The translations under genes and the position numbers were made by a program. DNA of 63,882 nucleotides, filler included, from Stramenopiles sp. TOSAG23-2 (Eukaryota): the NCBI GenBank assembly GCA_900128395.1. It is 13 parts of 13 records of this genome, joined end to end, with 100 filler letters (N's around TTAATTAATTAA, not from the genome) between each part and the next. Parts side by side here need not be neighbours in the genome. Positions count along the whole stretch, not along the records: positions 54,171 to 58,976 come from LT650809.1; 12 more parts are not named here. One strand, written 5' to 3'. Of this stretch, positions 27,058 through 59,130 are shown one piece after another; within the stretch, counting starts at the first letter, position 1, and each line of letters starts with the position of its first letter. The notes below the pieces were generated by a model, which was not told the origin of the DNA, did no database searches, and saw nothing but the letters and a program-made list of their open reading frames with translations.

Positions 27058-27074
27058 ATTTTATTATTATTATT

Positions 27075-27118
<44 letters not shown>

Positions 27119-27135
27119 AATAATAATAATAAAAT

Positions 27136-29292
27136 ATGACTTCTTGGAACGACGAAACAGAGTGGTTTTATTTAGGTGAAGATGGTGTTGAAAACGTTGG
27201 TCCATTTTCAACTACTGAGATGGCTGGTTACCATAAAGATGGTGGAATCGATGATGAAACATGGATCTGGAACGAAGCTATGGAAGGATGGAAACAATTG
27301 AAAGATTATGAAGAATTTTCTAGTTACTTAGATGGTTTGAGTTATATGTCAGCAACAACTGATGCACCAAAAGCGCCTGAGTCAAACGATAAAGTATCTG
27401 CTTTACCAGCTGCACCAAGTGACGAAACCAGAAAATCTTCCAAAGCAAAAGCAAGACGCACATCTATGCTACGCCCAGCAGAAACAAAGTCTGGCAAAGC
27501 ACCGCCACCTTCATCGCAAAAAAGTGATTTTTCGAAATTGAAAGAATTATCAGAAAAAAATTATTATGAACAAGCGCAGTGGTTTCTAAATGCATATTGG
27601 AATACTGAGCCTATGAATTTTGGTAATAATCCTGATGCAAGAGAAAAAGTGTGGGATTTTGCTCGTTTAATTGCAAAGTTAGATTTGCAAAACGGCAAAG
27701 ATGGGAATGAGCTTGATGAATTCCAAGCCCATGTTTTCTTAGAGAAAACTGGAAGAGTAATGACAATTAAGAGAATGCGTGAAATTTTAAAAGAGGTTGA
27801 TGTTGATTTTAATAAAAAAGTTTCATTGACTGAATTTTTTATTTTCCAATATTCACTTGATTACCATGTCCTTGTAAATGCAGTGATTGGTGGCGACGAT
27901 GAAACAACTGCAAAGATTGAAGCTGCGAAACAAGCATTAGCAGACGCACAAACTCAAGCTGAACAAAGTGCAGTAGCTGCTAAAGCAGCAGAAGAAGATG
28001 CTGTCGCTGCTACGACAGCGGCAGAAGAGGCGAAGAAAAAAGAAGAAGAAGCAGTTGCATCTGCAAAAAAAGCACAAGAAAGTGAGGCAGAAGCAATTAA
28101 AAAAGAAGCATCAGCAAAAAGTCAAAAAGAAGCAGCAACGGCTGCAAGAGAGGCAGCAAACGAACAAGCGGAAAAGGCAACAAGTGCACGCCAAGCTGCG
28201 GAAGAGGCATCTGAAGAAGCAAGACGAACTGCAAAAGCTAGTGAGGTTGCTGCAAATGAAAGTTATGAACAATCACAAGCTGCACAAGCATCTGCAAAAA
28301 TTGCTAAAGAAAAAGAAGCAGATGCTGTTGCCGAAGAGGAAGTATGTTCCAAAGCAGAGGCAAAATTAGCAACTGTTGAAGCAGAAGCCGTATCCGCTTC
28401 AAATGCTTTGGCAGCTGCTCAAAAAGCAGCTGAAGATGCCCTTGCAGAAATGAACGCGCAACAAAAAGCTTATGATGATAAATGTACTCAATTAGCAGCA
28501 GTTGCAGACTCAGATGCAGGTACAGTAACAAAAGGCCGGGCAGCTGCTGAACTGGCACAGTTGAAAGCAAAAGATCCAATGCCATTAGACCGAGCAAAAA
28601 TCAATCAAGGTGCAACAGTAAGAAAAGTTGGTAGAGCAGCGAAAAAAGCAAAAGCAAAAGCTGCAGAAGCAGAGTCTGAGAGATCTGTTGCAACCGCAGC
28701 AAAGGAAAAGGCTGCTGGTGTTCGTGCAAAAGCTGTTGAAGCAAGACAACTTGCAGATGCTGATGCTGAACAAGCAAGTAAAGCAGCTGCAGATGCAAAA
28801 GCAGCAGCAGAGCAAGCACAAAAAGATGCATTAGCAGCTCAAGAAGCAGAAAACCAAGCAAAGAACGAAGAAGAGATTGCAAAAGAAGAAGAAGCAACAG
28901 CTCTTACATTAGAAAAGGCTGCAACTGGTTCCCACAATCGCGCGATTGAAGCGCGTGCAAATGCAGTAGCACAAAGAGAAAAAGCTGATGCAGAAGCAGC
29001 AGCTTCAAAAGCAGCCGCGGCAGAAGCAGCTAAAACAGCAGAAGCAGCAGCAAAAAGTGCTGAGCTTGCAAAAGAGGCAGCAGTACGAAGTGAAGAGAGT
29101 ATGCAAGCAGCAGAAATTGCATTGGAGACTGTCAAAGAGCAATGTAAAAATGCAACAACCCATGGTACCTTGTGGTGGTTGGATCGTGAATGGGAAGAAG
29201 CAAAGAAGTACATGTCGAAAAGTAAGATTGCAAAGCTTGAAGCAAAATCACGTAGTTTTCGTGCACAAGCAACTGCTTTCCAAAGTCGTTAA
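27136..29292 (+). CDS. GYF_2 domain + EF-hand calcium-regulated actin-bundling-like protein with long Ala/Glu/Lys coiled coil
   Basis: WFYL...VGPFS...ETWIWNEAMEGW (GYF_2). EQAQWFLNAYW, LDEFQAHVFLE, EVDVDFNKKVSLTEF, ELAQLKAKDPMPL and GTLWWLDREWEEAKKY resemble the Dictyostelium 34-kDa actin-bundling family. Confidence 0.75.
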   Translation: MTSWNDETEWFYLGEDGVENVGPFSTTEMAGYHKDGGIDDETWIWNEAMEGWKQLKDYEEFSSYLDGLSYMSATTDAPKAPESNDKVSALPAAPSDETRKSSKAKARRTSMLRPAETKSGKAPPPSSQKSDFSKLKELSEKNYYEQAQWFLNAYWNTEPMNFGNNPDAREKVWDFARLIAKLDLQNGKDGNELDEFQAHVFLEKTGRVMTIKRMREILKEVDVDFNKKVSLTEFFIFQYSLDYHVLVNAVIGGDDETTAKIEAAKQALADAQTQAEQSAVAAKAAEEDAVAATTAAEEAKKKEEEAVASAKKAQESEAEAIKKEASAKSQKEAATAAREAANEQAEKATSARQAAEEASEEARRTAKASEVAANESYEQSQAAQASAKIAKEKEADAVAEEEVCSKAEAKLATVEAEAVSASNALAAAQKAAEDALAEMNAQQKAYDDKCTQLAAVADSDAGTVTKGRAAAELAQLKAKDPMPLDRAKINQGATVRKVGRAAKKAKAKAAEAESERSVATAAKEKAAGVRAKAVEARQLADADAEQASKAAADAKAAAEQAQKDALAAQEAENQAKNEEEIAKEEEATALTLEKAATGSHNRAIEARANAVAQREKADAEAAASKAAAAEAAKTAEAAAKSAELAKEAAVRSEESMQAAEIALETVKEQCKNATTHGTLWWLDREWEEAKKYMSKSKIAKLEAKSRSFRAQATAFQSR

Positions 29293-30635
29293 TCAATTTC
29301 AAGACGATTATCACAGCTGCTTTTTCCAACATACCTTTTTCTATATAAAATTTATGCGCGTATTTGATTAGAAATACGAGTAAATAATTACGAGTCGTAT
29401 ATAACTATTCATACTACTCATGCTTGTAGAGTATTAGTTTGCAGAGGTGTATTAGAGCTTTACTATAGTAGGATAGAATATTATTCTTGCGATTGAGTAT
29501 TGAGCNNNNNNNNNNNNNNNNNNNNNNNNNNNNNNNNNNNNNNNNNNNNTTAATTAATTAANNNNNNNNNNNNNNNNNNNNNNNNNNNNNNNNNNNNNNN
29601 NNNNNCATTATTTGATGAATGATGTTGTACCATTACTGGTACAGCTTGTGCTGTTGGCACGTTGCTATTATTGTGGTTTTTTGTTGCAAATGATGACATA
29701 TGATCTATTTCTTTATTGAATATATGATGTAATGATGATGATGATGATATATATCTATATCTAGTTGTCGTCTATTTACTATTATTCAATATAAATTTAA
29801 AATAGTTGTGTTGCTTGTCTTTGTGCATATTTATTATTATTATTATGAGTGTATATGTTGTACTTGGTAAATTATGATGTGAATTTATTATTTGTAATAG
29901 CCAGATAGTTACGAGGAGATATCATTGTTGTTCAATATTTCTGCTGTAGACCACGTATTTATTAATAGCTAGCTAATACTTCCATCAGCCTTGTTGGTTG
30001 TTGTCTTGGTTTGTTAATGCTATTCTTATGCTATAATATTAAACCCACATGAAAAAGATGCTATTTTCATATTATTACTGCACAATGTGCACCCACCCAC
30101 CACCACATTCAAGCTAGCTAGCCATTCCAAGCAAGCCAAGCCTGGCAAGGTAGCTAGCCTACTAGATCGTAAGGAATCTCGGATGGCAGAGATGATAAAG
30201 CTTCAACAAAAGTTAGTCATGATACATGGTACTGGAAGTGGTACCTGGGACTACACTGGAAAACCACGATGTAAACCTGCAAGTGCAGGTAAGAAATACA
30301 GTATTATCTTACTTAAAAAACATGTCTTTGTACAAATTTGGTTACACAGTTGCATGGGATAAGATACCATGTATTATACGTGGACATAGCATACAGACAT
30401 ATAATACCATTGTATTACTATTATATCTTATAATTTATCATTATGCACCCATAATATCCGGCTCAAAAAGAGGGGAAAATTAATATATACATACACACAT
30501 TTATTCTAGATTTATAAAAAAAACAAATTTTAACAAAACATTCCCAAACAATAAAACACAATGCTATTAAAACATAGTTACAAATCAAATCAAATTTGCA
30601 AGAATATATTAAAAAAAAAACAAAAAGATATAAAG

Positions 30636-35067: not shown

Positions 35068-38000
35068 ATGACTTGTTATTTTGTGTGTGTATATGTTTTT
35101 CTTATATTAATAACATTGTTGACAATACTCGTTAGAAATGTTTTGTCCACAAAAAATAATATTCACCATGATGTTGAAGATAGTAGCCCAATATTATCAT
35201 TACCTGTGTGGGACGGAATAAAAAGGACAGGGGCATTTAAACTTACCAGTAATATTGCTACTAGCAGAGCCATTGATATATATAGAAATCAAAAACTACG
35301 AATCTTTGGCATTGTCGACGATAATCATGTTAAACCTGCTATTGATGGGGGTGGTACACATCGCTTTTTTACCCTATATAATGGAGTTAAAGAATTACGA
35401 TTAACAAGTATAACATTAAGAAATGGATACAGTACTGGCAACGCAGAAACGGATATTACAGATGGTGGTGCATTTTATGTAACTTCTGGATCAACATTGA
35501 TATTAGTTAGCTGTACAATATCAAATAATGTGGCAAGTGGAAATGGTGGTGCCTTTTACATTTCCGATATATATAATTCAGTAAGAGTAACATTAATAAG
35601 CTGTATAGTATCAAATAATTTTGCTCATAAGAATGTAAGTAATGCTATAATTTAATTTACTTGTTGTTGCAATATATACACTTTTGCTGATCTAACAATG
35701 TGGTTCTCGTATAAAAATTCTTAATTTCATCTCAGGGTGGAGGATTATATATTTGGAATGGAGATATTAATATCATAAAAAGTCAATTTATTAATAATAC
35801 TGCTTTAGCACAAGGTCCGACCATCTATACATGGGTTCCTATAAATATCAGTTTAAATACGACATTTAATCCACCCAATTCAATATATGGAGATGGATAT
35901 AGTTCATTTGCAGAATGGAATGAAGGAAATAATGGTATCTTTCAGCTTTCTCAAGATGTTAAAATAAGCAAGACTATTACACTAGACACAAACCAGTTTC
36001 TCCCAATAAATTTACAAATTATTGGTATTGTTGATGACAATGGTGTCAAACCAGCTATTGATGGAGGCAACACTCCGGGCTGTATCGTTGCAGGTTGCAC
36101 TACTGGGAAAACACCAATACGTGTATTCAATTTACATTCATCGCATGGACCGTATTATTCTGTGCTGAATTTAACAAATGTGACCATACAAAATGGTTTC
36201 CAGGGTGGTTTTGGTAATTCAGGTGCTGGGATAAATAATAATGGGGGACTAGTAATATTAGTTGATTGCAACTTATTAAATAATACAGCTGAGCGTGGTT
36301 ATGGTAGTAATGGTGGTGGTATTACCTCAGGTAATGGGGGACGCATAAGATTGCAACGCTGTACATTTTTTAATAATTTTGCTGAACAGAATGTATGTAA
36401 TCATATATATGCATCTTTTATGCATTGAAACAACTTAATCACATAGACTAAGTAACTAACAACATGCTATATATATATATCTGTCATAGGGTGGTGGAAT
36501 ATTTATTAGGTCGGGATATGCTCAGATTATATCGTGTGTTTTTTTAAACAATACTGCTCTTCATGGTCCAAACATTAACACCTTTCCACATATTTCCATT
36601 ATAAACACAACGTTCCTGCCACACAAATCGATAGTTGGACGAGTAGAACAATGTCAAGCAGGGATGTGCAAAATAGCAATGCCAGCACTACCAGCTTTTG
36701 GTATTGGTTGCAAAACTAAATTCAGTGAGATACCAGGGACTTCAGAAATGTGCCATGATAGAACATGTATTGAAGGCATTATATGCTTTCCATGCCACCC
36801 TGGTAAATATCTTGAAGCAGATTCAACCTATGCATCATGTCAATCATGTGACTCTGGGAAAGCTACCGAAGCATTTGGTAGTAAATCATGCAAAAATTGT
36901 AAATCAGGCCAATATGCTGTTGAAGCTGGAATTTCAAATTGCTTTCCCATGCCTAAGATCACTAAAGTATACCCTAGTATAAGTAAATTAAATCTGATTG
37001 CTGAATGGAGTTTTTCTTTAGGCGATAAAAGTAAATATGGAGCATTGTTTATTGTAATAGAGCCAATTGATAGCCTAACTACAAAAGTTATTACTAGTGC
37101 AGTTGTAAAAATATCTGTTCGTGGTCACTTAAGTAAAGCTACAACAGGCAAGTTGCCTCGCAGCATTACAGATCGAGTGTATCATCTACGGATATATTTA
37201 AAGGATTCACTGAATAAAACAATTAGTGAGGGCATTCAGTATAGATTACCATGGAATACAACAGAATCATGCAGGGATGGAAATTTTTATTTAAATGCAA
37301 CTGATTTACATATGACAAAATGGCCTTGTGAAAGGTGCCCACAAGGTGCTTCGTGTCATGGTGCAATCACCTGGTCGGGTGTGAAGCCAAAGTTTGGTTA
37401 TTGGCAAGGTATGCATACTGGGGACAATACGTTTTATCCATGTTTATCTCCATCTTCCTGCTTAGGTGCGCCAAACAATGCATTGATACCTCTTTTTGGA
37501 GATAAATTAGCCAATAATATCAATGGTACCTTTGGATGTGCGCCGAATTTTACAGGTCGTTTATGCGCAACATGTCAAACGCATTATGCTCGAAGTTCGG
37601 GCCCTGGTTCATGTGCAAAATGCAGTGAACCAGCCAATATACTTATTTTGATTCTCGCTATAGTTTTTGCGGTGTTTGGTACATGTGTTTTGATACGTGT
37701 AACAGTGTTTAAACCCCGTGAAATTCGGTTTTCCGATGGCGTAAAGAAAATTGTGTTATCGTATTTACAATTAGCATCGTTAGCTGCAAATACAAATGTA
37801 CCGTGGACATCATTATTTCAAAGCTTATTTTCTATACAAGAAATGTCTACCAGTATAGCAGATGCTATGCTTAATTTAGATTGCGTATTATATAATATGA
37901 AGACGTGGGATGTTTTTGTTTTAAAATTGATTGGGGTATTATTAATACCTATACTGGTTATTCCATTTGCATATTTCGGTATACTTCAATGTAGAAAAAA

Positions 38001-39018
38001 GTTAAAAATCAGTGGCGATGGTAATGGTCAAGATCAATTTATTGCAAGTTTGGTGTTGTTATGGTATTTGGCCTTTCCATCCATTGTAAAAAAAATGACA
38101 ACACTCATTACTTGTACTATACCCATAAACAATATTAAATATGTTGAAATAGATCCCCGCATAAAATGTTTTAATGGTGAACATTTAACAATTGTCTATT
38201 CCATTGGAATCATAGGTTTAGTTTTGTACATAATTGGACTTCCGTTGGTAAGCTTCCTCATTTTAAGACATGTTGATCGTTCCAAAGAAAGCTCGCGTTT
38301 ACGGTATGGTATTTTATATGATGGGTATTCAGAAAAATACTGGTATTGGGAAATTGTTGTGGTATTGCGTAAAGTTGCAATTATTTTAATTAGTGGTTTT
38401 ATGGAAGGCCAAGAACAAATATTAAGCATGCTGCTTGTGTTATTTATTGTAATTTATATGACAGCAATTTCCCAACCATTCACAAACATACAGTTATTAC
38501 ACTTAGAACTTGCATCTCTTGCAACATGTTTCATAACATTTTGGATCGGTAGTATATTTTTAATAGAAGGTTCAAAATGCCATGATGGCACATACACAGC
38601 GTGGCAACTGATGATACGATGCCAGTTAGGTGCTTTGTTTGTTATTGCGTTGAACATTGGTGCATGCTTCTACTTGGCACAATTATATTTAAGGGTGAAG
38701 ATAGGAGAGAAGAAAGATTTTATAGCGAAAGTTAGTAGCTCAAGAATATTTTATTATTGCAGATGCTGTTTTCGATCAGAAATTAAAGATATGATAGTTA
38801 AAAAGGAAAAAGAAGATAAAAAGAAATTAAAACAAAGAAGTACCAAACGAAATTCATGGAACATGACTAGCGTTGATGAGTTAGAACAAGCTAAAAAATT
38901 CAAGAAATCTGCTGCACTTACTTCGATGAAAAAAGTCAACAAAACCCAGGCGCCAAAATCTGTGTTAAACCCAGCCAGGCAGTCCGTCGTTAATTCAAAA
39001 CTGAGAAACAACTTGTAA
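35068..39018 (+). CDS. Beta-helix/Cys-rich/multi-TM surface protein, 1250 aa; exons 35068-35634, 35736-36392, 36490-39018
   Basis: Two phase-0 GT-AG introns with CTAAC branch points join three ORFs in frame without stops. Signal anchor present. Shares SDG.KKI..S.LQLA.LA...N.PW and R.G.LYDG motifs with 559-4770. Confidence 0.88.
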
Positions 39019-39814: not shown

Positions 39815-42800
39815 TTAATAATTTCGACCACGCCGCCGGTTACCTCTACTACTTCTTTTCTTTGAAGGTACAACTGCACCTTGTGCATCCATTTTAGCAA
39901 TCATTGCATTGGCATCTTCTTCACCAAATTCTTCTTTCAATTTAGCGATTTCAGCATCTCGAATAGATTTTCTAGTAGCAGCTGCATGTTCCATAATTTC
40001 TTTTTGCCTTTGTGAAACTAGTTCTTTCATTCTTGATTCGTGGTTTCTAATTGCTAGTTCATCTGCTGTGCTGGATACATTTCTATAATGTTGTCGAAGC
40101 CTATCAAAGCGCTCTCTTTCTTCCATTAAAATACGATCATCTGTTTCCCGTAGAACCTTATTAAATGCTGCTTTTTCTCTCAATTCTTGCTCTTTAAATA
40201 AAAGCTCAAGCTCTGCTTTGCGATCTTCAATTCTTTCATTATCAATATTCTTTAATATATCTTGTAATTTCTTTTCCTCCTCTTGTATATCTGCACCTTC
40301 GTCTAACTTACGATGCATAATTTGTTCCTCAAACTCCCGTTTACGTTGTAAAGATTCTAATTGCCTTAAACGTTCTTCCCTCATTTCTTTTTCTTGTTGC
40401 ATTCGTGATTCAGCTGCATCTACCAACATGGCACGTTTCGATTGCTGCTCCTCACGCCAACGTTTTAATTCCATTGCCATGATTTTCTGTTCCCTTTCCT
40501 CTTCTTCTAACAATATTCTTTGCCGTCTTTTCTTTTGTTCAATTTCCTCTTCTGCTGACATTTGACCTTCTAACCTAGCTTCTCTCAATTTACGCTCGCG
40601 GTCTGATTCCGCAAGTTTTGCTTCGTACTCTATCTCCGCCACAGTTTGCTTTGTCATCAATTCTCGTCTTACTTTTTCCACTTCCAACTCTGCTGCTTTT
40701 TTTTGTAGTTCCTCCGTACGAGCTTTAATGAGCGCCGCGCGCCTTTCATCTTCTAATTTCATTTCACGCATAGCCCGCTGATGTTGCAACAGTGCCTGCT
40801 TTTGCATCGCTTCATATTCAGCTTGTAAAGCTTCCATATCATCGTCGGTTTTTCTTTTTGCTTGAATTTCTTGGACTTGTTGCATTGATTGGAATTCAAG
40901 AGACAGAAGTTCTTCCTCCTTTGCGCGTTCCTTTAAGGCTTGTTCTTGCTCCTCCATTCTTACTTTTTGCTCTAATTCTGTCTTTTGCTTTTGTATTTCA
41001 ATCGCTTTCTTTTGATATTCTAATGCTCTTGCTGCAGATTCTTGTAAAAAGGCCACTTGCTCCAAGCGCCTTTCCTCTGCTAATCGTGCTAAACGTTGAC
41101 GCTCTTTTGCACGATCTTGCGATTCACTTGCCATTTTTTGCACACGAGCTTCCTCACTTCTTAAATATTCAGCTTGTTGAATTTGCCAATCGCTTTCTCT
41201 ACGACTCAAATCAGCTGCGCGGCGTTGTAAGTCCTGTAAATTGCTTCTTTTCTTTTTGATAGTAGCTTCCTCATCTTCAATCCTTTGCCTTTCTTGCAAT
41301 TGATAATTCACTACATATTTAGGATACCTATCAAAAATTGGATAGTGTCCTGTTCCGATTGGAAAATTCATTGCACTTGCTTCTGTTTTAGTTGGAATCA
41401 ACTCATTTGGTGTATTAGCACGTAAGCGATACATGCTGCGAATTAATCCATCCATACTAACTGGGTTTTGTCGTTGTAAAAATGCTTCGATTTCCTCATT
41501 TGATCCTGCACCAATAATAGCAGAACGAAATTGTTTTAAATATGCAACAATTGCAATTGGAAATAGGCTTGATTCATCGCTGTGAGATAATATATGATCA
41601 AACAAATGCAACCACTCATCACGACTGAGCACTTCAGTGAACAAAGTTCGCATGATTCTCCATGCGTAAACTCTTGCATCAATGCCGCGGGCTACTAAAT
41701 TGTCCAACAATGGTTTGTCGTGATGTGCTAAAAGCCTTTCAACATGTGTCAAAACTGGTATAGGAGGATGTGGAAACGTTTCAAACCAACCATCGCACCA
41801 ATTCAACACAAACGCCATAATTGTTTCAAATGCACCCAACGCTTCAGATTCAAACAATTTAACAAATGGAAATGCCATTGATGGCAAATATGATAAATTG
41901 GAAAAGACTGGAGACCAATGTGCTAGGCCAGATAGCAATTTTTGCAATTTTCTCATAACCCGTTGGTTGTTAATTGGGTAATCTTTTGCTAAATTTGCGT
42001 AGTTTGGATGTATACCACGCCTCATCAATTGCGCAAATGCATCTTCGTTACGTGGTAATTGCAATAAGTATCCCCATATCAATAAACGATATTTTTCTGG
42101 ATATTGACCGTAGGAACGCAACAATGCTAATAATCTTGGTCGACTAAGACGCTTGAAAATTTTACCTTGATCAACTGTACGTGGTTGGCGTTGAGCTTTT
42201 TTCTTTCGTAAAATCTTTTTCTTCTTTGCTGCAACTAAAGCTTGGCGATCATCCGCAGTATTTTTTCCAAATGCCTCATTGATAATAGCGGAAGATGGTT
42301 GTGCATCGACTTGTTTCGGTTGTTCCATCTCATCTGCCATCTCCAATGCTGCAGATGATGCAAGTATTTGACTTTCCATGGTTGATGCCGGTTGTACTTC
42401 AATACCATTGTTCTGTTTTTCTTCTGTTGCCTTGACTATAGCACTTGATTCGTCTTCATCTTCTTCTTTATTTGCAGCAGAAAAATCAGGTCTCGGTCCA
42501 GCTGGAACTTGAACAATACTTGGTGGATCAACTTCCGGTACGACTGGTTTACCATCGCTAGGATCGTACATTGGATAATTCACATCAAGTTCCTCTTCCG
42601 TGGCACCCATTCGTAAACTGGCATCACGAACTTTGTCGTTAAATTTTTTTGCTACATGTATGTCATACAATGCAACACTACCGTTGCTTAAGCAACATGC
42701 GCAATATTTTGCATTTTCATCCATAGAAAAGGAAACAATGGCCATTTTTTTACGTGCAAATTCCATATCTAACCTGGCATCATTATTATTTTCCCCTGCA

Positions 42801-43723
42801 ACTACTTTTAAAAATAACATACGTCCATCGTCCCCTAGTACACCAACGCTTCTAGAATCTGGCATAAAATGTACTTTATGTACCACACCAATGGTCATGG
42901 GCAATTCGATTGCGCTGACAAGACGTTTGCTTTGCACGTTCCACATGTACATATCCCGTGATTTACCACCTGCAATTAATAATTTACCACTTGGTGATAA
43001 GCTAATAGTTTGTATGGTAAACGGACGGTCCGTTTTTGGAACATCATATTTTCCTTGAATAGCGTATGATCCAGTGCTCCAAGACACAATTGTATCATCT
43101 TTAAATGCAACCATTAGCGACGTTCCCCTATCAGCAAATGTTGCAGATACAATACCAGAGCCAGCGCCAAGTGTTTTTATTTTCGACCATTTTTTTAAAT
43201 CCCATATGTTAATACCATCAACAGAAGCTGTTACCATAATAGCGTTGCTACTATGAAATGATATGGAAGTAACGGCTTGTTTATGAGCATTTGCCAACGT
43301 TGCTAATAATCGTTGTGAATCGATATCAAAGATGTATACTGTGCCATCTCGTGTGCCGCATGCAAGTTCATTTTTGCGCAACGGGGAAAATGCCATGGAT
43401 GTTATAGGGCAACCTAAATTCTTTAATTGGACATATCGATTTTTAGTTAAACGAAATAAAGCAACGTTACCTCTTGCATCCCCAGTTGCCATTGCGTCTC
43501 CACGTTGGTTAAACTGTACGAAAGATAATTTAACTGGTGGCTTTACAACGTCCGTTATATTTGCTCTTGCAACATTTTCATTGGTGTTTTTATCCAAATT
43601 GCTCTTTTTAATACTAGGCTTTGAATTTTGCAAAATTGATACAACACCAGAAGCTGTTACAGTAGGTTTGGAAGGCCATATACGACCTTGTCTTTCATTT
43701 AATTCTACAGTATTTACTGGCAT
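39815..43723 (-). CDS. TBC1D31: TBC1 domain family member 31 (WD40 + TBC + coiled coil)
   Basis: N-terminal WD40 repeats; YGQYPEKYRLLIWGYLLQLPRN, LAHWSPVF, YLPSMAFPFVKLF and WCDGWFETFPHPP; long C-terminal coiled coil. Confidence 0.9.
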   Translation of the reverse strand: MPVNTVELNERQGRIWPSKPTVTASGVVSILQNSKPSIKKSNLDKNTNENVARANITDVVKPPVKLSFVQFNQRGDAMATGDARGNVALFRLTKNRYVQLKNLGCPITSMAFSPLRKNELACGTRDGTVYIFDIDSQRLLATLANAHKQAVTSISFHSSNAIMVTASVDGINIWDLKKWSKIKTLGAGSGIVSATFADRGTSLMVAFKDDTIVSWSTGSYAIQGKYDVPKTDRPFTIQTISLSPSGKLLIAGGKSRDMYMWNVQSKRLVSAIELPMTIGVVHKVHFMPDSRSVGVLGDDGRMLFLKVVAGENNNDARLDMEFARKKMAIVSFSMDENAKYCACCLSNGSVALYDIHVAKKFNDKVRDASLRMGATEEELDVNYPMYDPSDGKPVVPEVDPPSIVQVPAGPRPDFSAANKEEDEDESSAIVKATEEKQNNGIEVQPASTMESQILASSAALEMADEMEQPKQVDAQPSSAIINEAFGKNTADDRQALVAAKKKKILRKKKAQRQPRTVDQGKIFKRLSRPRLLALLRSYGQYPEKYRLLIWGYLLQLPRNEDAFAQLMRRGIHPNYANLAKDYPINNQRVMRKLQKLLSGLAHWSPVFSNLSYLPSMAFPFVKLFESEALGAFETIMAFVLNWCDGWFETFPHPPIPVLTHVERLLAHHDKPLLDNLVARGIDARVYAWRIMRTLFTEVLSRDEWLHLFDHILSHSDESSLFPIAIVAYLKQFRSAIIGAGSNEEIEAFLQRQNPVSMDGLIRSMYRLRANTPNELIPTKTEASAMNFPIGTGHYPIFDRYPKYVVNYQLQERQRIEDEEATIKKKRSNLQDLQRRAADLSRRESDWQIQQAEYLRSEEARVQKMASESQDRAKERQRLARLAEERRLEQVAFLQESAARALEYQKKAIEIQKQKTELEQKVRMEEQEQALKERAKEEELLSLEFQSMQQVQEIQAKRKTDDDMEALQAEYEAMQKQALLQHQRAMREMKLEDERRAALIKARTEELQKKAAELEVEKVRRELMTKQTVAEIEYEAKLAESDRERKLREARLEGQMSAEEEIEQKKRRQRILLEEEEREQKIMAMELKRWREEQQSKRAMLVDAAESRMQQEKEMREERLRQLESLQRKREFEEQIMHRKLDEGADIQEEEKKLQDILKNIDNERIEDRKAELELLFKEQELREKAAFNKVLRETDDRILMEERERFDRLRQHYRNVSSTADELAIRNHESRMKELVSQRQKEIMEHAAATRKSIRDAEIAKLKEEFGEEDANAMIAKMDAQGAVVPSKKRSSRGNRRRGRNY

Positions 43724-44350
43724 CTTTTAATTTGTATATACTATATTTACTTTTTCCTAGATAATCTAATTTATTGTATCTAACATTAAATTATTATATA
43801 TATATATATATGATGAAGATGGTAATATTATCTATTAAAAAAATATAAATTGTTTAATGTATTATAATATATGTACATCTATATGTCTCTATCTGTACAT
43901 TGATGTACTATATAAATTTTCACTTTACAAATATAGATCTATGATACTTAAGCTAACAACCCAATTCAAAAAAAATAAAATAGTATTTATAACTGTAAAA
44001 AAGAAGGCGTTTAGCTTGTGTACTGTACCTGGTGGTATACGAGGAGCTGCTACATAATTAATAGACACTAGACACACTGACACACTAACACGATGACAAT
44101 AACATAGAGCTAGAGCTAGCTGGGCTATCGATATATAGCTCTAGCCAGGATAGCCAAATTAAGGTTTATTTTTTCAATTTTTTTGTCATCCGCGACGCAG
44201 TTTAGAAAGTCCCGACGGCAAAAAAGTCTCAAATTTTGCCATGCTCCGNNNNNNNNNNNNNNNNNNNNNNNNNNNNNNNNNNNNNNNNNNNNTTAATTAA
44301 TTAANNNNNNNNNNNNNNNNNNNNNNNNNNNNNNNNNNNNNNNNNNNNCC

Positions 44351-49260: not shown

Positions 49261-50300
49261 TTTTGCCATAAACGTGAGTTTTTGATAGATAAATCGTTAT
49301 GTTTTTCTTTTTGTGCAGTTAATTCTTTTTTAAATTTTGCTAATTCAATTTGAATTTCTGGATTGAAACATTTAGTGTGATTATTGTCTGTTATAAATGG
49401 TCTTATACAATCTTTACATTTGCCTGTGCCAACTATTTTGTATGTATTACCTTGGCATTTTATACACATGTTTTTTGCTTTGCATATGCAAGTTTCATTG
49501 CGTCCGCATGTTTTTTTGGAATTGAGATTTGAATTAAAACAATATTTGTTGTTGTATTTGTTTTGAAAACATCCAGGTGGCCGATAACTGAAACTATGTG
49601 CGGTACTATATCCGGTATTATCATCTACGTTCGTCTTCTTATTATGCATAGCTGCTGCTTTGCAATCTTCTTCAGTTGTTATTTTATGAATACATTGACC
49701 AGATGTACGTTTTGGTATTGTGTCGCTTATATTATTATATCCAAAACCAGCATCACAATATATTTCATCTTTTTTTTCTGAACATACATTAATAGAATGA
49801 TATGTATCTATATTTGAAGGTGTATATGGTGCATAAATTGGACATGGTGTACATGTTGGGCTGATACCACCTTCACTATATGTATTGATTGGGCATTTAC
49901 TACATGTTTTTGATTTGCATATACATTTCATACTATTACTACATCTCTTTTTTGATTTTGTGTTGATATTCCAGATATATTTCTTAAATAAACCACTAAT
50001 ATAATAACATCCAGGTGGATGATGCGAATAACTAAATCGGCCTCCAAATCCTCTATTTTTATGAATATTATTCTTACTATTATATTCAGCTGCTAATTGA
50101 CATTCTTCTGCTGTTGTTATTTTAGATATACCACTACATTGCGAACCAGATGTACGAATATCTGTTGGTAGCGTACCGTAACCAGCTTTGCAAGTAAGAT
50201 CCTTTTCACCACGAACAACAAATATCAGCATATACTGCAAGATTAGCAATAACATAACTATATTGATGACGTTCATTTTCATACATAAACTTAAATTCAT
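49261..50300 (-). CDS. 3'-truncated tandem paralogue of the 820-aa secreted Cys-rich protein
   Basis: Identical to 51360-53822 in the 5' part, diverged in about 49261-49605 (e.g. HSFSYR vs LSVSYW). Confidence 0.7.
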
Positions 50301-51359: not shown

Positions 51360-53822
51360 TTAACAACTTCCTTGACGCCTATTCAACAACTTCCTCCTCC
51401 TCCCCAGATCGTAAGAACTCTTCACGTCGTATTGCGTTCCCGTCAACACCACGTTTTTGGAATAATGTTTGTCGTGTTTGTCTTTTAATTTTGTCAATTT
51501 GTTTTCACAGCCGTCATACGTTTTACATGTTGTGAAATCGTGGTAATCATTACAACAATTTGTGGTATCAACATATGCTTTTACTTTGACTTTTGCCCCA
51601 ATTAAATATTGTTTCCTTTTACAATACGGCAATTCACTTTGTAAATACCCATTCTCATCTTGTGTATTCAAATTTACTACAGCAACCCATTCTGTTTCGT
51701 TGCCTAACATATCCATCGCGACCTGCTGAATGGAAATATCGTTCGCGGTGAACAATGGCGCAGGGCAAGAACTATCTGTTACCTCGTACCGCAGCTGTTC
51801 AGATAAGCGAAACATCTGTTTATCATTATAAGAAATACCATTTTTTAAATAATGGACCGCCACATTTTTTATGTTTGTATCACTTAAATCCAAATGGTTG
51901 TATCCATGACAAAACTCCGTTTTCTTCTGCTTCAGCTTCGATGACACCCATTTCGAACCACTTGTGCATTTTACATCTACTGCTTTTGGCACTGGTTTCA
52001 TTTGCATCATGTTTTGTATATTGTTTTTCCCTATGCGTTTGACAGCTGAACGTTTACGTAACGATTTCTCCATGGTTTCTAAAAACGATGAGGTCTGGAT
52101 TTTCATTGGTTGCATGTACAAACTTTTAATCAAATTATAAAAGCTCTTCATTGCATGCTTGTATGGTATAAACAATTCACACAATTTATTTTCGGCATTT
52201 CCGGGTGCATCCACAATTCGTGGGCCGCATAACGACACCTCATTAAAGAAAGTCTTAATCAAGCTTTTTGCATTTTTCTTCTTACTCATACGAACTGATG
52301 AAAGAGAATCCAATAACTTCATCATACCTTCATGTAAATAACCATTACGTTTAATCGTATCCGTCACTTCTACGTATAAATTATGACGACTATAATTACC
52401 ACCAGATGACAATGCAAATGGTATAATTTCACCCCGATTTAAATCACCAGACGGGTCTTTACATACTTCTAATGTTGTATCACGTCTTTCTTTACAACAA
52501 ATATTTGGCCAAAATGATTTTGCTTCTTTATCATCAATAGATTGTATTTTAAACAATTTATCTAAATCAGATGTAAATGAACAAAACGATTTTAATAATT
52601 CATCACGATTTGTATCAATACATGTTGTATCTTCAATTTTTTCAATTTCATTTGATATTTCAATCGCAGGGAAGATTATTGTACCATCCTTTCGCTCTTG
52701 TTCACAAAAATCTTTTTCATTTTTATTGTCGTCTGATTTACGTTCTTGCATTAATTTATCATGTTGTAAACGTATTTGTTCTTTTTGCCATAAACGTGAA
52801 TTTTTGATAGATAAATCATTTTGTTTTTCTTTTTGTGCAGTTAATTGTTTTTTAAATTTTGCTAATTCAATTTCAATTTCTGGATTGAAACATTTGGTAT
52901 GTAATTTGTCTGTTATAAAAGGTTTTATACAATCTTCACATTTGCCTGTGCCAGCTATTTTGTATGTATTACCTTGGCATTTTATACACATGTTTTTTGG
53001 TTTGCATATGCAAGGTTCCTTGCGTCCGCATGTTTTTTTGGAATTGAGATTTGAATTAAAACAATATTTGTTGTTGTATGTGTTTTGATAACATCCAGGT
53101 GGCCAATAACTGACACTAAGTGCGGTACTATATCCGGTATTATCATCTACGTTCGTCTTCTTATTATGCATAGCTGCTGCTTTGCAATCTTCTTCAGTTG
53201 TTATTTTATGAATACATTGACCAGATGTACGTTTTGGTATTGTGTCGCTTATATTATTATATCCAAAACCAGCATCACAATATATTTCATCTTTTTTTTC
53301 TGAACATACATTAATAGAATGATATGTATCTATATTTGAAGGTGTATATGGTGCATAAATTGGACATGGTGTACATGTTGGGCTGATACCACCTTCACTA
53401 TATGTATTGATTGGGCATTTACTACATGTTTTTGATTTGCATATACATTTCATACTATTACTACATCTCTTTTTTGATTTTGTGTTGATATTCCAGATAT
53501 ATTTCTTAAATAAACCACTAATATAATAACATCCAGGTGGATGATGCGAATAACTAAATCGGCCTCCAAATCCTCTATTTTTATGAATATTATTCTTACT
53601 ATTATATTCAGCTGCTAATTGACATTCTTCTGCTGTTGTTATTTTAGATATACCACTACATTGCGAACCAGATGTACGAATATCTGTTGGTAGCGTACCG
53701 TAACCAGCTTTGCAAGTAAGATCCTTTTCACCACGAACAACAAATATCAGCATATACTGCAAGATTAGCAATAACATAACTATATTGATGACGTTCATTT
53801 TCATACATAAACTTAAATTCAT
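51360..53822 (-). CDS. Secreted Cys-rich protein, 820 aa, with two internal ~95-aa repeats
   Basis: Signal peptide; RTSG..C..KITT.E.C..AA...PPGCY...CICK twice; C-terminal GRRRKLL. Confidence 0.8.
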   Translation of the reverse strand: MNLSLCMKMNVINIVMLLLILQYMLIFVVRGEKDLTCKAGYGTLPTDIRTSGSQCSGISKITTAEECQLAAEYNSKNNIHKNRGFGGRFSYSHHPPGCYYISGLFKKYIWNINTKSKKRCSNSMKCICKSKTCSKCPINTYSEGGISPTCTPCPIYAPYTPSNIDTYHSINVCSEKKDEIYCDAGFGYNNISDTIPKRTSGQCIHKITTEEDCKAAAMHNKKTNVDDNTGYSTALSVSYWPPGCYQNTYNNKYCFNSNLNSKKTCGRKEPCICKPKNMCIKCQGNTYKIAGTGKCEDCIKPFITDKLHTKCFNPEIEIELAKFKKQLTAQKEKQNDLSIKNSRLWQKEQIRLQHDKLMQERKSDDNKNEKDFCEQERKDGTIIFPAIEISNEIEKIEDTTCIDTNRDELLKSFCSFTSDLDKLFKIQSIDDKEAKSFWPNICCKERRDTTLEVCKDPSGDLNRGEIIPFALSSGGNYSRHNLYVEVTDTIKRNGYLHEGMMKLLDSLSSVRMSKKKNAKSLIKTFFNEVSLCGPRIVDAPGNAENKLCELFIPYKHAMKSFYNLIKSLYMQPMKIQTSSFLETMEKSLRKRSAVKRIGKNNIQNMMQMKPVPKAVDVKCTSGSKWVSSKLKQKKTEFCHGYNHLDLSDTNIKNVAVHYLKNGISYNDKQMFRLSEQLRYEVTDSSCPAPLFTANDISIQQVAMDMLGNETEWVAVVNLNTQDENGYLQSELPYCKRKQYLIGAKVKVKAYVDTTNCCNDYHDFTTCKTYDGCENKLTKLKDKHDKHYSKNVVLTGTQYDVKSSYDLGRRRKLLNRRQGSC

Positions 53823-54170
53823 TTTGTCAATTTGTAAATCAAATGTATAAATACGCAGTGTCTTTAATTGTTTAATAATTTTTTTTGGTTAAATTGTTTT
53901 TTGTTGTGATTACAATAATAATAATAATAATCAACTTTAGTTTCTTTTTATTTTTTTGTTTTTTGCTTTTGTATATGTATATACTTCTTTACTACTTTAC
54001 TAATACTAGTGAATATCTCTTGTGGTCTTGTAAAATTATAGCAGGTAAATATAGGATTTAACATTAAACANNNNNNNNNNNNNNNNNNNNNNNNNNNNNN
54101 NNNNNNNNNNNNNNTTAATTAATTAANNNNNNNNNNNNNNNNNNNNNNNNNNNNNNNNNNNNNNNNNNNN

Positions 54171-54320: not shown

Positions 54321-54912
54321 CAGTACAGTATGTAAATATCTACTGTCTGGGCTGTGTATGGTAATACCATATAATAACATAATAATTCCTTAAATGGAAA
54401 ATGCTTGAATTTGATTACTTTTGATAGCTGCGAAGATTGGATTTTACAGTAGTTCCGTTCACTGGAAAGGATATTCTAATGCCCTAATTTATTATGTCAC
54501 ATAGGTAAACAACTAGCTAGACTATACATTATATACTGTAGCTATAACCAGGCCCTATTACGTGGTGAGCTTCTTGGTTTATTCAATGTGCATATTTATG
54601 ATGTGCCTAAATGTGCATAAATTGGTTTGTAATATTAGAAATATATATTTATAGAAAAAATATAACAGATATACATTGGTATATACATAGAAATATAGTT
54701 GAAAAATATATAAGAAGATTTTGGTATTAAATTGATATATATATACACAGATAAACGTATTGAATATATATATATATTTGTTCTAGGTCAGATAAGTTTG
54801 ATAAAATTGTGATTCATATTATATATATCGATATATAATTATTAATTATACCGTGTAAAATAATATATTATTATTATTATTAATAATAGTCTAAAATAAT
54901 AATAATAATACA

Positions 54913-55971
54913 ATGATGATGATGATGAGTGGAAATAATAATAATAATGGTGCAAATACCTCAAGCACAACAACGACCACAACAATGAATGATAACAATA
55001 ATATGCCACAAATGCCAGATATGTCCATGATGGCAAATATGATGAGTGGTGCTGGAATGAATCCTGAAGATATGGTACAAATGATGTCATCTATGTCCCC
55101 AAATATGCTCCAAAATAGCGGAATGATGCTGATGAACCCAGCTGATATGATGAATTCAATGAATCCCGAATTAATGCAAGCAATGACGACCCCCGAAGGC
55201 ATGCAGCAAATGCAGCAAATGCAACAATTTATGATGCAGCAAATGGGTGCTGCAACTGGGATAGGCGACTCTAATCCAGGTCAATGGTTTAATGCAGCTG
55301 CAAGACAAATGTTGCCAGGAACAGGAACAAACTCAGAGGAAGAACCAATGTATGTGAATGCTAAACAATATAAACGTATATTGTTACGCAGAGAAGCACG
55401 TGCGAAATTAGAAGCAAAATTTAAGCTGACTCGTGGAAGAAAAAAATATTTACATGAATCAAGGCATCAACATGCATGTAGAAGACGTAGAGGACCAGGT
55501 GGTAGATTTTTAACACAAGAAGAAATGAAAAAAATATTGGAAGAAGAGGAATTAGCTAGAAAATCGGAAGCTAATAGTAAGAATAACAAGAAGGACGATG
55601 ATAATAATAACAAAGAAAGTAGTAGTAGTAATAAGAATAAGAATAATAAAAACAAGGATGATTACGACAGGATTAATAATAATAATAGTAATAATAATAA
55701 TAATGACCACAATTCAACACCACCAACCAGTTCTCCGATGAAAGCTGAGGTAGATAGTAGTAGTGGTAGTAATAGAAAGAGTAAGCGAAAAAACAGCCCG
55801 AAAAAAAATATTAATAGTCCAATAATGGTAACTCCAGAAACTAATAACAAACGAACTTCTAAGCGATTTACTAGAAGTAATAGTGGCAGTAGTGTTGATT
55901 CATCAACTACATCATCATCACAACGTCCATTAAAAAAGTCAAAACGTACTCATACTCCCAGAAGAAGATAA
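54913..55971 (+). CDS. NFYA: Nuclear transcription factor Y subunit A (HAP2/CBF-B)
   Basis: [25 protein letters not shown]...[22 protein letters not shown]. Confidence 0.95.
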
Positions 55972-56630
55972 AATGTATGTGTATATATATATATATATAC
56001 TTATTTAATTAATGCATAATTTATTTTTTAATTTACTCATGATAATTCCTACTCTCCAGAAAGAATACAATAACTGAGACAAATCTATCTCACTAAACTG
56101 AAAGATATATATAAATAATAAAAGTACGCGCGTATGATATTTTCATTTTTACGAAGAGTATTATTTTTTAAAAACTCTTTTATATTGTATTCTCAAGATT
56201 TATATAAAAAATCTTATGCATACAAACGTAGATTTTAACCATCTTTATTTTAATATATATATACTTCGTATATATATCTAGAATATAAAATATAATTTAT
56301 TTTTAATGTACGTAAGTATATATAAAATTTTCTATTACTCATATATTATATAAATTTCTTTTACTCCCGTTCATTAACATCTCAAATCAAAAATGATTTA
56401 TCTTATATATATATATTAAAATAATTTTACTTTCCCATTGGTAAAAATATTATGCTCAATACTCTATCTCAAGGGGAATAATATTCAATCCTACGAAGTA
56501 CTATGTAAAACTAAAGCTCTAACGCAGATATACATATATATGTATAAAAGTGTCTCACATACGAAGCTTCGTCGTATTAAAAACCAAATATGATTTTGCT
56601 TTTGCGTGCCGGGGGGGAATCACTCAGTTT

Positions 56631-56690
56631 GATAAGATCGAAAACTATTTCGTATATTTGTTATTTCCTAAATAGTTTTGTCATTTCTTT
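56631..56690 (-). promoter_or_regulatory. Eukaryotic SECIS element in the 3' UTR of the PrdB/GrdB-like gene
   Basis: Minus strand: AAGAA-AUGAC-AAAACUAUUU-AG-GAAAUAACAAAUAUA-CG-AAAUAGUUUU-CGAU-CUU. AUGA/GA core, perfect 10-bp helix II, unpaired apical As. Confidence 0.88.
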
Positions 56691-56791
56691 TTTCTTTTTT
56701 TGGTTCATATTCTTGTGTTATATATTTTTTGTGTTCTATGAATATATTCAAACATAAATAACCATTCACATGTATATATATATATATAAAT

Positions 56792-57939
56792 TTACATCCT
56801 CGCTTGATTGTAATATTTATTTTGTCGGATTGCTTCTGGTGATACAATACCTTCTGCGTCTTGACCATAATGGCCAATTGCTAAAGCCATGTCATCCTCT
56901 GATTGATAAACACGTTTTCTAACGCGTTTTGGTCTTATTGCTGCTCTTGAATTACCAACTTCAAATACATCATTAACAGTATCAGCCCAATCAACATCCA
57001 ATACGTTTACTTGTCCAGGTTTGTTGAAACTATGAAAACCACGAAGAGCAGCATAAACAACATGTTTTTGATCTTCTACATCAAATGGTTTACCACTGTG
57101 GGGCGTATATGAATGAGTGATGTGTTAGAAAGGATATCCTTCTTAGGTTTAGGGGAATAGAATTTTACGTACGCTTGATGGCCTAGAGGGTAGTTCACAA
57201 ACGAGATACGTGGAGCCCATGCATGGCTTAATATATCAAATGCACTACCTAATAACATTGTTGGAATACCAGCTTCTTCTAACCCCCTTGCAATTAGAGA
57301 ACTGGTTTGATGACATAAAGGTCACATAGCTACTACTAAACAAACATCTGGTTGTTCAGCTTGAATTGCTTTTGTAACATTTGGAATTAAATTTTTTGTA
57401 ACTTTTTTTACAGAATAACATGCACCCATAACACTAAAAAAGTTTTTTGTTAAACTTCCAATTAAATGATCTTCGTGTAATGCTGATCGTAATGTATCAA
57501 TTGGAAATATGCAATTTGGATCACGTCTACCATCTGTTAAATAATTTTCCGTGAAATGACTAAAACGTAAGTCAGTAGTAGGTGTATTACTTGGTATGAC
57601 TCGATACGTATCATCATCTTTGTATTTATATGCAAGATCACCCTTAACATGGCAACCCGAAGTGGAAATTAATGTAACTTTGCATTGAGACAATGGTTTT
57701 TCGACTTTAACAAACTTTGGCGGTGTTTCTGAATTTACCCATCCATATGGACGTAAATTGGGATTACCTGCTGCTATATCTGGTATCCAATTTTTACAAG
57801 TATCACAATTTGTTGGTTGTGAAGTAACAGAACGTATTGATTCTCGAAGGCCAGGGACAATTACTTCTCTTTTTTCTTTATACCCTCTATCTACTGGTAA
57901 TTTTGATCCAGAAAAATATGGTGGATATGTCGATGTCAT
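56792..57939 (-). CDS. PrdB/GrdB-like (proline/glycine reductase selenoprotein B family) selenoprotein, 356 aa, Sec206; exons 57939-57173 and 57095-56792
   Basis: KPLSQCKVTLISTSG...DPNCIFPIDTLR...DVCLVVAM-UGA-PLCHQTSSLIARGLEEAGIPT...PLGHQAGKPFD. Family similarity continues through the UGA at 57322-57324. 77-nt GTACGT...CTAAC...CAG intron; SECIS downstream. Confidence 0.9.
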
Positions 57940-58561
57940 GGTGGCGTTATACTTTTGTATATGTAGTATAGCAACTCTGATATAGCTTCTTTAAGCTGTA
58001 CATTAATTTTCTATATTTCAATTTATTAATGTTTAGCAACTACTTTGTATGTATGCCAGGTACTAGTATGCGCGTTCGACGGAGGAGTTGTAAGTAATTT
58101 AATAAGGGGACGAAAAAAAGCCTGGATATAGAATAGCATGAACATAGCTAGCTAGTACGAATTAACATGGTCATAGCATGGTTCATCTTACCCTAATCCT
58201 AACCATAACTATTTTCAAAAAGATAAAACGTCTTTGCATTTATTATTAGCAGCCGCCTGGTTTTATTTTGTCGGCTTTTCTCCACACTAAAAACTGTAAT
58301 ATGAATAACATGACACAGCATTACCAAGATTAAGTTTAACGAATAACGATAAAAGTGATTCGGATGTTGTATTTTTAGATCTAAAAAATACAACTAAATA
58401 CTATTGGAAACATAGATTGATTATTAGGTACAGAAAAAATAAATAAAAATATAATTAAAAATAATGCAACAACACACAAGAAACATATAACAAAACAAAA
58501 GTACAAAAACAAACAAACACACACAGAACATAATAATAATAATAATAATAGCAAAGCAATC

Positions 58562-58843
58562 ATGTCATCATATCAAACCCCAGATACTAAAAAAGAAGAA
58601 TTTCGTAAATACTTGGAAAAAAGTGGTGTAATCGATGCCTTAACAAAAGTTTTAGTAGGCTTATATGAGGAACCAGAACGTCCACCAAATGCTGTGGAAT
58701 ACATCAAACGTTATTTAGGTGCCCCAGCTGGCGTAGATGTGGAAGCTTTGAAATCTGAAAATGCACGATTAAAGAAAGAAAATGCCGCATTACAAGAAAA
58801 GGTTGAACAAGCTGCAAACAATATGGGAGGTAAAGATGAATAA
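58562..58843 (+). CDS. MYCBP: c-Myc-binding protein (AMY-1/FAP174 homologue)
   Basis: KKEEFRKYLEKSGVIDALTKVLVGLYEEPERP. Confidence 0.93.
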   Translation: MSSYQTPDTKKEEFRKYLEKSGVIDALTKVLVGLYEEPERPPNAVEYIKRYLGAPAGVDVEALKSENARLKKENAALQEKVEQAANNMGGKDE

Positions 58844-58956: not shown

Positions 58957-59130
58957 CAAGTATTATGGTATTAATGNNNNNNNNNNNNNNNNNNNNNNNN
59001 NNNNNNNNNNNNNNNNNNNNTTAATTAATTAANNNNNNNNNNNNNNNNNNNNNNNNNNNNNNNNNNNNNNNNNNNNTTTACAATGCCACCTATACGATAC
59101 CAGGAACGTGTTTTTAAATTTAATTGTTCC

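Follow-up and report, generated by a model that had tools for sequence, protein, structure and literature searches.

A nuclear, intron-containing gene of a marine eukaryote, on the minus strand at positions 56792-57939 of a 63,882-nucleotide (nt) stretch of DNA from Stramenopiles sp. TOSAG23-2 (NCBI GenBank assembly GCA_900128395.1; the whole stretch is hereafter the window), is very likely to encode a selenoprotein, 356 residues long, that belongs to the selenoprotein-B (PrdB/GrdB) superfamily. Codon 206, a UGA, would be read as selenocysteine (Sec), directed by a kink-turn Sec insertion sequence (SECIS) stem-loop ~110 nt into the untranslated stretch at the 3' end (3'UTR); this element would take over from the hairpin that lies within the open reading frame (ORF), just past the UGA, in bacterial relatives. 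The eukaryote-type clade to which the protein belongs, with N- and C-terminal extensions of its own, would go back to a single event in which a stand-alone PrdB-like gene was captured from Proteobacteria. We hold this reading as a whole, capture and mechanism included, with high confidence, and are equally confident that the window protein is a Sec protein, its Sec insertion being what we infer from the features below. The pattern goes far beyond chance: the PrdB model matches across the TGA, and diverged relatives share this TGA. The features of the gene are as follows.

57173..57939, minus strand: exon 1, codons 1-255 plus 2 nt; frame open except for one TGA, with a PrdB model match over residues 72-253
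57322..57324, minus strand: in-frame TGA, codon 206, predicted selenocysteine in U-P-L-C (U206, C209); 36 of 37 related loci have TGA and then P[LVI]CHQT, where Cys forms read CPVCHQ
57096..57172, minus strand: intron, 77 nt, GTACGT...CACAG; relatives are continuous across the junction (YPLGHxAGKPxD)
56792..57095, minus strand: exon 2, codons 256-356 plus TAA (56794-56792); C-terminal homology, with a ...YQxxED... block and the eukaryote-type tail ...GIVSPEAIRQ...
56630..56692, minus strand: candidate eukaryotic SECIS in the 3'UTR; AUGA at 56684-56681, helix II with 12 pairs in 14 positions, AAA in the loop, GA at 56639-56638

From an ATG at 57939-57937, exons 57939..57173 and 57095..56792 yield a spliced coding sequence of 1071 nt, comprising 356 codons and a TAA, in which codon 206 is the sole internal stop. 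With TGA translated as U, exon 1 reads MTSTYPPYF...PDVCLVVAM-U-PLCHQTSSLIARGLEEAGIPT...YPLGHQ, the U being residue 206, and the surroundings of the predicted Sec read ...VVAM-U-PLCHQTSSLIAR. The intron (57172..57096) has GTACGT at its 5' end and CACAG at its 3' end; when 57173 is joined directly to 57095, an Ala codon (GC|T) is completed and the frame runs on as HQA|GKPFD, and retention of the intron leads to a stop after 32 further codons. Homology across this junction supports the predicted 77-nt GT-AG intron: two poly(A)-tailed transcripts of orthologues (L004, L006) and the loci L002, L032, L033 and L038 are uninterrupted there (YPLGH[QPS][AC]GKP[FL]D), and the same region reads YPLGHSAGKPFDPEDQ in the Cys form P0037 and YPLGHQAGKPFD in P0228, a relative of 65% identity. 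An independent contig, L001, which is 99% identical, carries the same gene and the same intron, with zero mismatches within the latter. Two matches to exon 2 (P0227 and P0229, 94-97% identity) were considered as proof of splicing and rejected, as they derive from unspliced or variant DNA. An earlier, sequence-only reading had proposed that three ORF fragments here were a single gene; the 356-codon spliced frame with its one TGA and the PrdB match spanning it bear this out, and the positions given then for the TGA (57322-57324), the intron (57096-57172), the 356-residue product and U206/C209 were all correct, with the gene on the minus strand.

Assignment to a family rests on profile comparisons. 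The NCBIfam model TIGR04483 (PrdB) matches window exon 1 over residues 72-253, across the TGA (E 6.4e-35, 120.7 bits), and matches the orthologue P0226 (locus L002, 360 aa, intron-less) over model positions 15-234 of 238 (E 1.8e-37, 129.1 bits), so that the family similarity expected beyond the UGA is indeed found there. The curated equivalog cut-off of this model is 300 bits, and both scores lie far under it; for Pfam GRDB (PF07355, gathering score 22 bits), window exon 1 (17.1 bits) and P0226 (18.2 bits) fall short, but L004, another orthologue, reaches it (31.0), as do two Cys forms, P0037 (33.2) and P0032 (43.8). GrdB-type models match the window protein weakly. On these scores the protein is homologous to PrdB over its full length, yet not a PrdB equivalog, and belongs to Pfam GRDB at superfamily level only. 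An exhaustive HMMER search returned 737 relatives at E<=1e-3, including full-length Cys forms with CPVCHQ. The UxxC stands at the catalytic position: the U of U206-P-L-C209 falls in one column with the leading Cys of CPVCHQ in Cys forms and the TGA of relatives, bacterial as well as eukaryote-type (clostridial PrdB is not in the alignment), which answers a check proposed in the sequence-only reading, and across 24 aligned sequences the invariant residues, in P0226 numbering, are U/C209, P210, C212, E224, R247, G256, G260 and W295.

The sequence-only reading had linked the family to Stickland-type metabolism, and this needs correction, the nearest relatives being not the PrdB of Stickland-type clostridia but stand-alone 'PrdB' selenoproteins of aerobic, largely marine Proteobacteria that have no PrdA neighbour. 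With that marine family the window protein shares UxxC and its flanks (HQT..AR.LE..GI.T), a core of ~270 residues, the absence of an observed PrdA/GrdE neighbour and its place in the tree, being 42-49% identical to proteins of Alpha- and Betaproteobacterial metagenome-assembled genomes (MAGs), among which the eukaryote-type sequences nest. It differs from them in its eukaryotic character, shown by the intron in the gene and the poly(A) tails of orthologous transcripts, in the added N-terminal (~60 aa, modelled with low confidence) and C-terminal (~25 aa) extensions, and in the lack of a post-UGA hairpin, a candidate 3'UTR kink-turn stem-loop being present instead. Among better-known systems, D-proline reductase PrdB of the Clostridium sticklandii and C. 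difficile type resembles it in near whole-model homology and in having Sec in UxxC, but the hosts of the window family are aerobic marine organisms, not Stickland fermenters. GrdB/GrdF/GrdH (PF07355) show weak local similarity before the Sec (model positions ~280-340) and the same order of Sec then Cys; GrdB, however, is ~430 aa long and aligns in its C-terminal third alone, and the window protein lacks the context of GrdA, GrdC and GrdE.

Of the alternatives to the reading proposed here, the one that survives best, although we consider it unlikely, is that the gene encodes a true B subunit of D-proline or glycine/betaine reductase whose pyruvoyl partner of PrdA/GrdE type lies elsewhere in the nuclear genome. 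Homology does span the whole length of PrdB, and since eukaryotic genes are not arranged in operons, little can be read into a window that shows no partner; a Pfam scan of 20 window ORFs gave no PrdA, in keeping with the earlier statement that the window holds no such partner. Against this reading stand scores of 121-129 bits where the equivalog cut-off is 300, and the stand-alone habit of the nearest bacterial relatives, in which Pfam found neither PrdA nor GrdE among 10 neighbour ORFs. These 10 do include an MFS transporter, encoded on the downstream side at L013, L020 and L022, and an acyl-CoA dehydrogenase, on the upstream side at L014, L020 and L022; no peroxiredoxin or glutaredoxin-like protein is among them. 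The commonest neighbour families at bacterial genome loci, a 424-aa ORF downstream (12/34) and a 375-aa ORF upstream (11/34), seem to resemble this transporter and dehydrogenase respectively in size, side and strand only. As the closest bacterial relatives show no partner of the PrdA type, D-proline is probably not the substrate, and D-proline or a glycine derivative in that role seems improbable, if a little less so than the reductase subunit itself.

As for chemistry, an AlphaFold2 model of P0226, a 67-68% identical orthologue, built on a 24-row alignment (predicted local distance difference test 81.2, predicted template modelling score 0.84; residues 1-51 of low confidence), predicts an alpha/beta domain in which U209, coming after a strand at 202-206, heads the helix 210-225. 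Sec or Cys at the N-terminus of a helix after a strand is the typical placement of redox-active CxxC/UxxC motifs. Structural comparisons retrieved generic Rossmann-like, LacI-type or SDR folds only (Foldseek against the PDB, best E 5.5e-3; VIA wide structure search, best Z 8.2), and a profile search of PDB sequences gave no real relative with a solved structure. By analogy with the scheme proposed for PrdB/GrdB, the window protein is best read as a putative thiol-dependent selenol/thiol reductase: with U-P-L-C placed, as modelled, at the head of a helix in a Rossmann-like domain, the selenolate would attack an electrophilic centre of the substrate, C209, three residues downstream of U206, would resolve the adduct to give a selenenyl-sulfide, and a thiol system would re-reduce the latter to complete the cycle.

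The case for Sec begins with the conservation of the UGA. A word-indexed search of 5.8 billion proteins gave 28 matches, of which 17 were inspected; 16 of these (12 eukaryote-type, of 49-99% identity, and 4 bacterial) stop at the residue just before the TGA (..V[AP]M or ..VPV), and the 17th is a 315-aa Cys form reading ..VPNCPVCNQS..EEAGIVT. Conversely, the HMMER fragment P0169 begins immediately past the Sec position. A scan of metagenome contigs found 47 loci, 10 of which, being either duplicates or truncated ahead of the site, were set aside; of the 37 parsed, 36 have TGA, then P[LVI]CHQT and an open frame of ~130-150 codons, the exception (L045) being out of frame, and all 12 loci inspected by eye have TGA, then P[LV]CHQT and ~150 codons more. 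Orthologues that keep the UGA, whose existence the sequence-only reading had left to be checked, do exist. In prokaryotic genomes, 55 of 76 loci were examined, with TGA (Sec) in 34 and TGY (Cys) in 21. The in-frame UGA is therefore kept in orthologues and matched by Cys in homologues, the pattern by which eukaryotic selenoproteins are recognised. A scan of the window for other in-frame TGAs with redox motifs gave 37 sites, none of them convincing besides the PrdB-like gene.

Decoding of the UGA appears to be specified in different places in the bacterial and the eukaryote-type genes. All 11 bacterial loci tested carry the letters of a stem CAGAC-CGUGU-GUCUG (loop CGUGU) ~13 nt past the UGA, and the stem is part of the minimum-energy fold in 10 of them, L014 having the same letters; in position and shape it corresponds to a bacterial SECIS. 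No such post-UGA fold is found in the window gene or in L002, L004, L006, L007, L033 and L038 (z -0.15 to +1.45). Instead, when 3'UTRs were scanned for helices of up to 14 positions closed by a kink-turn core ([AG]UGA...GA), the window proved to have an element that begins ~109 nt past the stop and is the best match of this type in the 820-nt 3' region. Other eukaryote-type 3'UTRs have stem-loops 46-137 nt past the stop, with 13 helix pairs in L002, 11 in L004, 11 in L006, 13 in L007, 14 in L032, 12 in L033 and 13 in L038. Within 250 nt of the stop, helices of 11-14 pairs occur in 7/7 eukaryote-type loci, compared with at most 9 in 22 bacterial loci (0/22 exceed 9); elements with at least 12 pairs and a span of no more than 70 nt have a background frequency per kb and strand of 0.04 in the window, and of 0.014 in GC-rich loci. 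The Rfam model SECIS_1 detects the L004 element alone, at 28.7 bits (gathering score 35; E 0.046), and the 3' flanks of the window gene and L001 differ at 40 sites, none of which falls in 56553-56750. Taken together, these observations make the 3'UTR element a well-supported candidate SECIS.

A number of points, in addition to the family scores below their cut-offs, weigh against this account. Firstly, an Rfam scan of 56000-58200 at E<=10 returned four chance-level non-SECIS matches and none to any SECIS family, SECIS_1 included. Secondly, under looser criteria 47 of 300 shuffled UTRs match the quality of the window element, whose 121-nt fold is unexceptional (z -0.31). Thirdly, its AAA lies 14 nt from the core, when the loop AAA of a SECIS is typically 11-12 nt away, and five GC-rich orthologues (L006, L007, L032, L033 and L038) have no AA motif directly after helix II. 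Fourthly, the criteria of the scan were fixed after candidates had been seen. Because of the Rfam miss, the shuffles, the fold score, the missing AA and the post hoc criteria, the element is termed a candidate SECIS and not a demonstrated one. Furthermore, ARAGORN found no tRNA, tRNA-Sec included, within the window, and L032, a GC-rich eukaryote-type orthologue (L032:739-860 and the 48 nt that follow its TGA), has a very stable hairpin immediately past its UGA (-32.4 kcal/mol, z -5.35), where bacterial genes have their SECIS. This same L032 also has the best 3'UTR kink-turn stem-loop (14 pairs), and it may be an intermediate, or its hairpin may be a Sec-redefinition element. Two other approaches were of little use: a loose IUPAC pattern for SECIS was uninformative (362 matches, 309 expected), and MAFFT failed to align the 3' arms of the seven 3'UTR elements.

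That the UGA is decoded, but as Cys or Trp under a changed code or by near-cognate read-through, is very unlikely. Some protists do reassign UGA, the evidence for selenium here is indirect, and stop usage in the window is slightly odd: the 30 stop-to-stop ORFs of at least 200 aa end in TAA (21), TGA (9) and TAG (0). TAG seems to be avoided as a stop here, and the TGA ends may in part mark where exons finish. On the other side, TGA is absent from the 10,189 codons of 14 long ORFs, in which TGG occurs 115 times, TGT 114 and TGC 77 (191 for the two Cys codons), and the organism does not use TGA generally as a sense codon. L004 uses TGA as a true stop as well; the in-frame TGA is kept across many unrelated lineages and in bacteria, where the SECIS-like hairpin stands behind it, and in eukaryote-type loci a 3'UTR stem-loop accompanies it without exception (7/7).

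Marginally less probable still is that the UGA is an ordinary stop, giving a 205-residue protein with a decaying remnant or a separate ORF downstream. Every gene caller ends the protein at the UGA, among them the one behind the NCBI member of the window's own cluster, a 205-aa 'hypothetical protein'; the 12 eukaryote-type database proteins ending at ..V[AP]M do the same, and there is no canonical SECIS match. Yet the 150 downstream codons are constrained as those upstream are: between the window and L002, the proportions of non-synonymous and synonymous differences (pN/pS) are 0.212/0.772 after the TGA and 0.220/0.815 before it, with amino-acid identities of 67% and 65% respectively, values that point to the same selection on both sides. 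This downstream frame is open in the examined loci of AT-rich and GC-rich lineages alike, holds the most conserved block of the family (CHQT..AR..E..G..T) and extends the PrdB match to position 234 of 238.

The PrdB-like gene is a real, expressed-looking eukaryotic gene. Its neighbours are the following.

54895..55971, plus strand: convergent neighbour, an ORF with a CBF-B/NF-YA domain (Pfam PF02045, E 2.1e-25), 820 nt downstream of the PrdB-like gene
58561..58843, plus strand: divergent neighbour, a small ORF earlier called MYCBP, ~620 nt upstream; no Pfam family at E<=0.001

Linkage to NF-YA and MYCBP had previously been offered, together with the intron, as an argument against contamination; the NF-YA half of it is confirmed by Pfam, and the intron and the eukaryotic character of the contig stand, but the MYCBP label is not confirmed, the ORF having no Pfam match. 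Elsewhere in the window, Pfam recognises myosin head, WD40 and RabGAP-TBC, Nup96 and Myb domains. The window sequence was detected in 20 runs from 14 studies, comprising marine and seawater metagenomes and including six poly(A)/cDNA metatranscriptomes (0.53-0.60 of sampled words), and because of this occurrence in marine metagenomes and poly(A) metatranscriptomes the source organism is taken to be a marine planktonic eukaryote. Bacterial contamination or an assembly chimera, which the otherwise prokaryotic distribution of the family and the presence of a 2.5-kb palindrome and 295-nt inverted repeats in the window might suggest, is a negligible prospect in view of the GT-AG intron, a GC content around the gene (0.30-0.31) and a codon style that match the surrounding contig, the nearby NF-YA, the independent contig L001, the orthologous transcripts of L004 and L006 ending in poly(A), the absence of the bacterial post-UGA hairpin, and the distance to prokaryotic species genomes, in which the closest tblastn match is 53% over a partial 120 residues (L094) and matches of ~230 residues or more reach at most 49%.

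The origin of the gene was addressed by phylogeny (IQ-TREE, LG+G4, 61 rows and 285 columns, two short rows dropped, rooted by choice on four Chloroflexota Cys forms). All 8 eukaryote-type rows form one clade (support 100/98) within a 52-row clade (100/100) whose other members are MAGs and genomes of Alpha-, Beta- and Gammaproteobacteria and one MAG labelled Acidobacteria; the sister group of the eukaryote-type clade is not resolved in this tree, and an earlier quick tree had set L033 and L038 apart from the other six eukaryote-type rows. Two features common to the eukaryote-type proteins are absent in bacterial forms, namely an extension at the N-terminus (..PPYFSGS..RESIR..PTNCD..W..DIAA) and a tail at the C-terminus (..VSPEA.RQ..). 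Nesting among proteobacterial relatives agrees with the horizontal acquisition proposed in the sequence-only reading, and the alignment and tree are consistent with eukaryotes having received the gene once, from a donor resembling a proteobacterium.

The bacterial proteins called 'PrdB' (UxxC, pfam07355) have been known since the Sargasso Sea and Global Ocean Sampling (GOS) surveys, in which they count as one of the most abundant selenoprotein families (PMC1088965, PMC2398784), and bacterial-type selenoproteins in marine protists are likewise a known pattern (PMC2375036, PMC3753652). The window gene resembles the bacterial-type selenoproteins known from marine unicellular eukaryotes in being a bacterial family found with a UGA and a 3'UTR SECIS (here a candidate), but those belong to other protein families, and PrdB/GrdB is not named in the main texts searched. 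Full-text literature searches, and the accessible parts of PMC7539508, PMC2375036, PMC6627142 and PMC3753652, nowhere mention a PrdB/GrdB-like selenoprotein in eukaryotes; 42 families, a 'Hypo' class among them, are named in 'The algal selenoproteomes' (main text and abbreviation list), and PrdB/GrdB is not one of them. Prior listing under another name, for example as a 'hypothetical selenoprotein' in supplements, is a substantial possibility, if not the likelier one. Public annotation cuts the protein short throughout: a full-length form was not among the 5.8 billion proteins, and the C-terminal 156 residues of the L002 orthologue had no match among proteins of 198-630 aa. This would apparently be a eukaryotic selenoprotein family not yet annotated.

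Eukaryotic selenoproteomes are small and closely catalogued, which gives weight to any addition, and all the more to a family that occurs in poly(A) metatranscriptomes and in several diverged lineages of marine protists. It also offers a comparison for the long-standing question of how a gene with an in-frame UGA survives transfer from organisms in which the SECIS lies within the ORF (bacteria) to those in which it lies in the 3'UTR (eukaryotes), as the post-UGA hairpin is present in the bacterial relatives, lost in most eukaryote-type genes and kept, in strong form, in L032. As stand-alone PrdB-like proteins rank with the most abundant selenoproteins in surface seawater, a eukaryotic branch would provide a second system in which to seek their function. 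The wider picture remains tentative, and we place it a little short of an even chance: a widespread, unannotated eukaryotic selenoprotein family, descended from one proteobacterial capture, which lost the bacterial SECIS, gained one in the 3'UTR and kept its UGA, works without a pyruvoyl partner and acts on a small-molecule or thiol substrate, probably a marine one. If true, it would be a rare, traceable crossing of a selenoprotein gene between two incompatible Sec-decoding systems.

Several further observations concern the remainder of the window. A 1303-aa ORF at 39815-43726 (minus strand) has WD40 and RabGAP-TBC domains, and its nearest clusters in a protein atlas are eukaryotic, of TBC1D31. 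TBC1D31 is a centriolar-satellite and cilium protein; the likeness of the ORF to it suggests a flagellated organism. Two ORFs of 842 aa (36490-39018 and 51360-53888) were considered as homologues and rejected, their equal length being coincidental. At 24586-29607 there is a perfect palindrome of 2514 nt (arms 24586-27099 and 27094-29607, 100% complementary) that duplicates a 719-aa GYF-domain ORF, one copy facing each way; amplification or a chimeric assembly seems a better explanation for it than biology. Perfect 295-nt inverted repeats (14825-15119 and 19228-19522), 4108 nt apart, flank a 1241-aa ORF with a Nup96 domain (15393-19118, minus strand) and may be either an artefact or a real inverted duplication. 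From 4843 to 59076 there are 24 runs of exactly 44 N, paired 12 nt apart and recurring every ~4.9 kb (1056 N in total), some of which cut ORFs, as in the myosin ORF at 59033-59076; their regularity suggests masking or scaffolding rather than sequence gaps. A tandem repeat with an 84-nt (28-codon) unit occupies 23380-24135, with seven overlapping 252-nt copies set 84 nt apart at 64-100% identity, within an ORF at 23388-24062 (plus strand). Lastly, a 300-nt direct repeat (49261-49560 and 52783-53082) of 94% identity, with copies 3.5 kb apart, overlaps two minus-strand ORFs.

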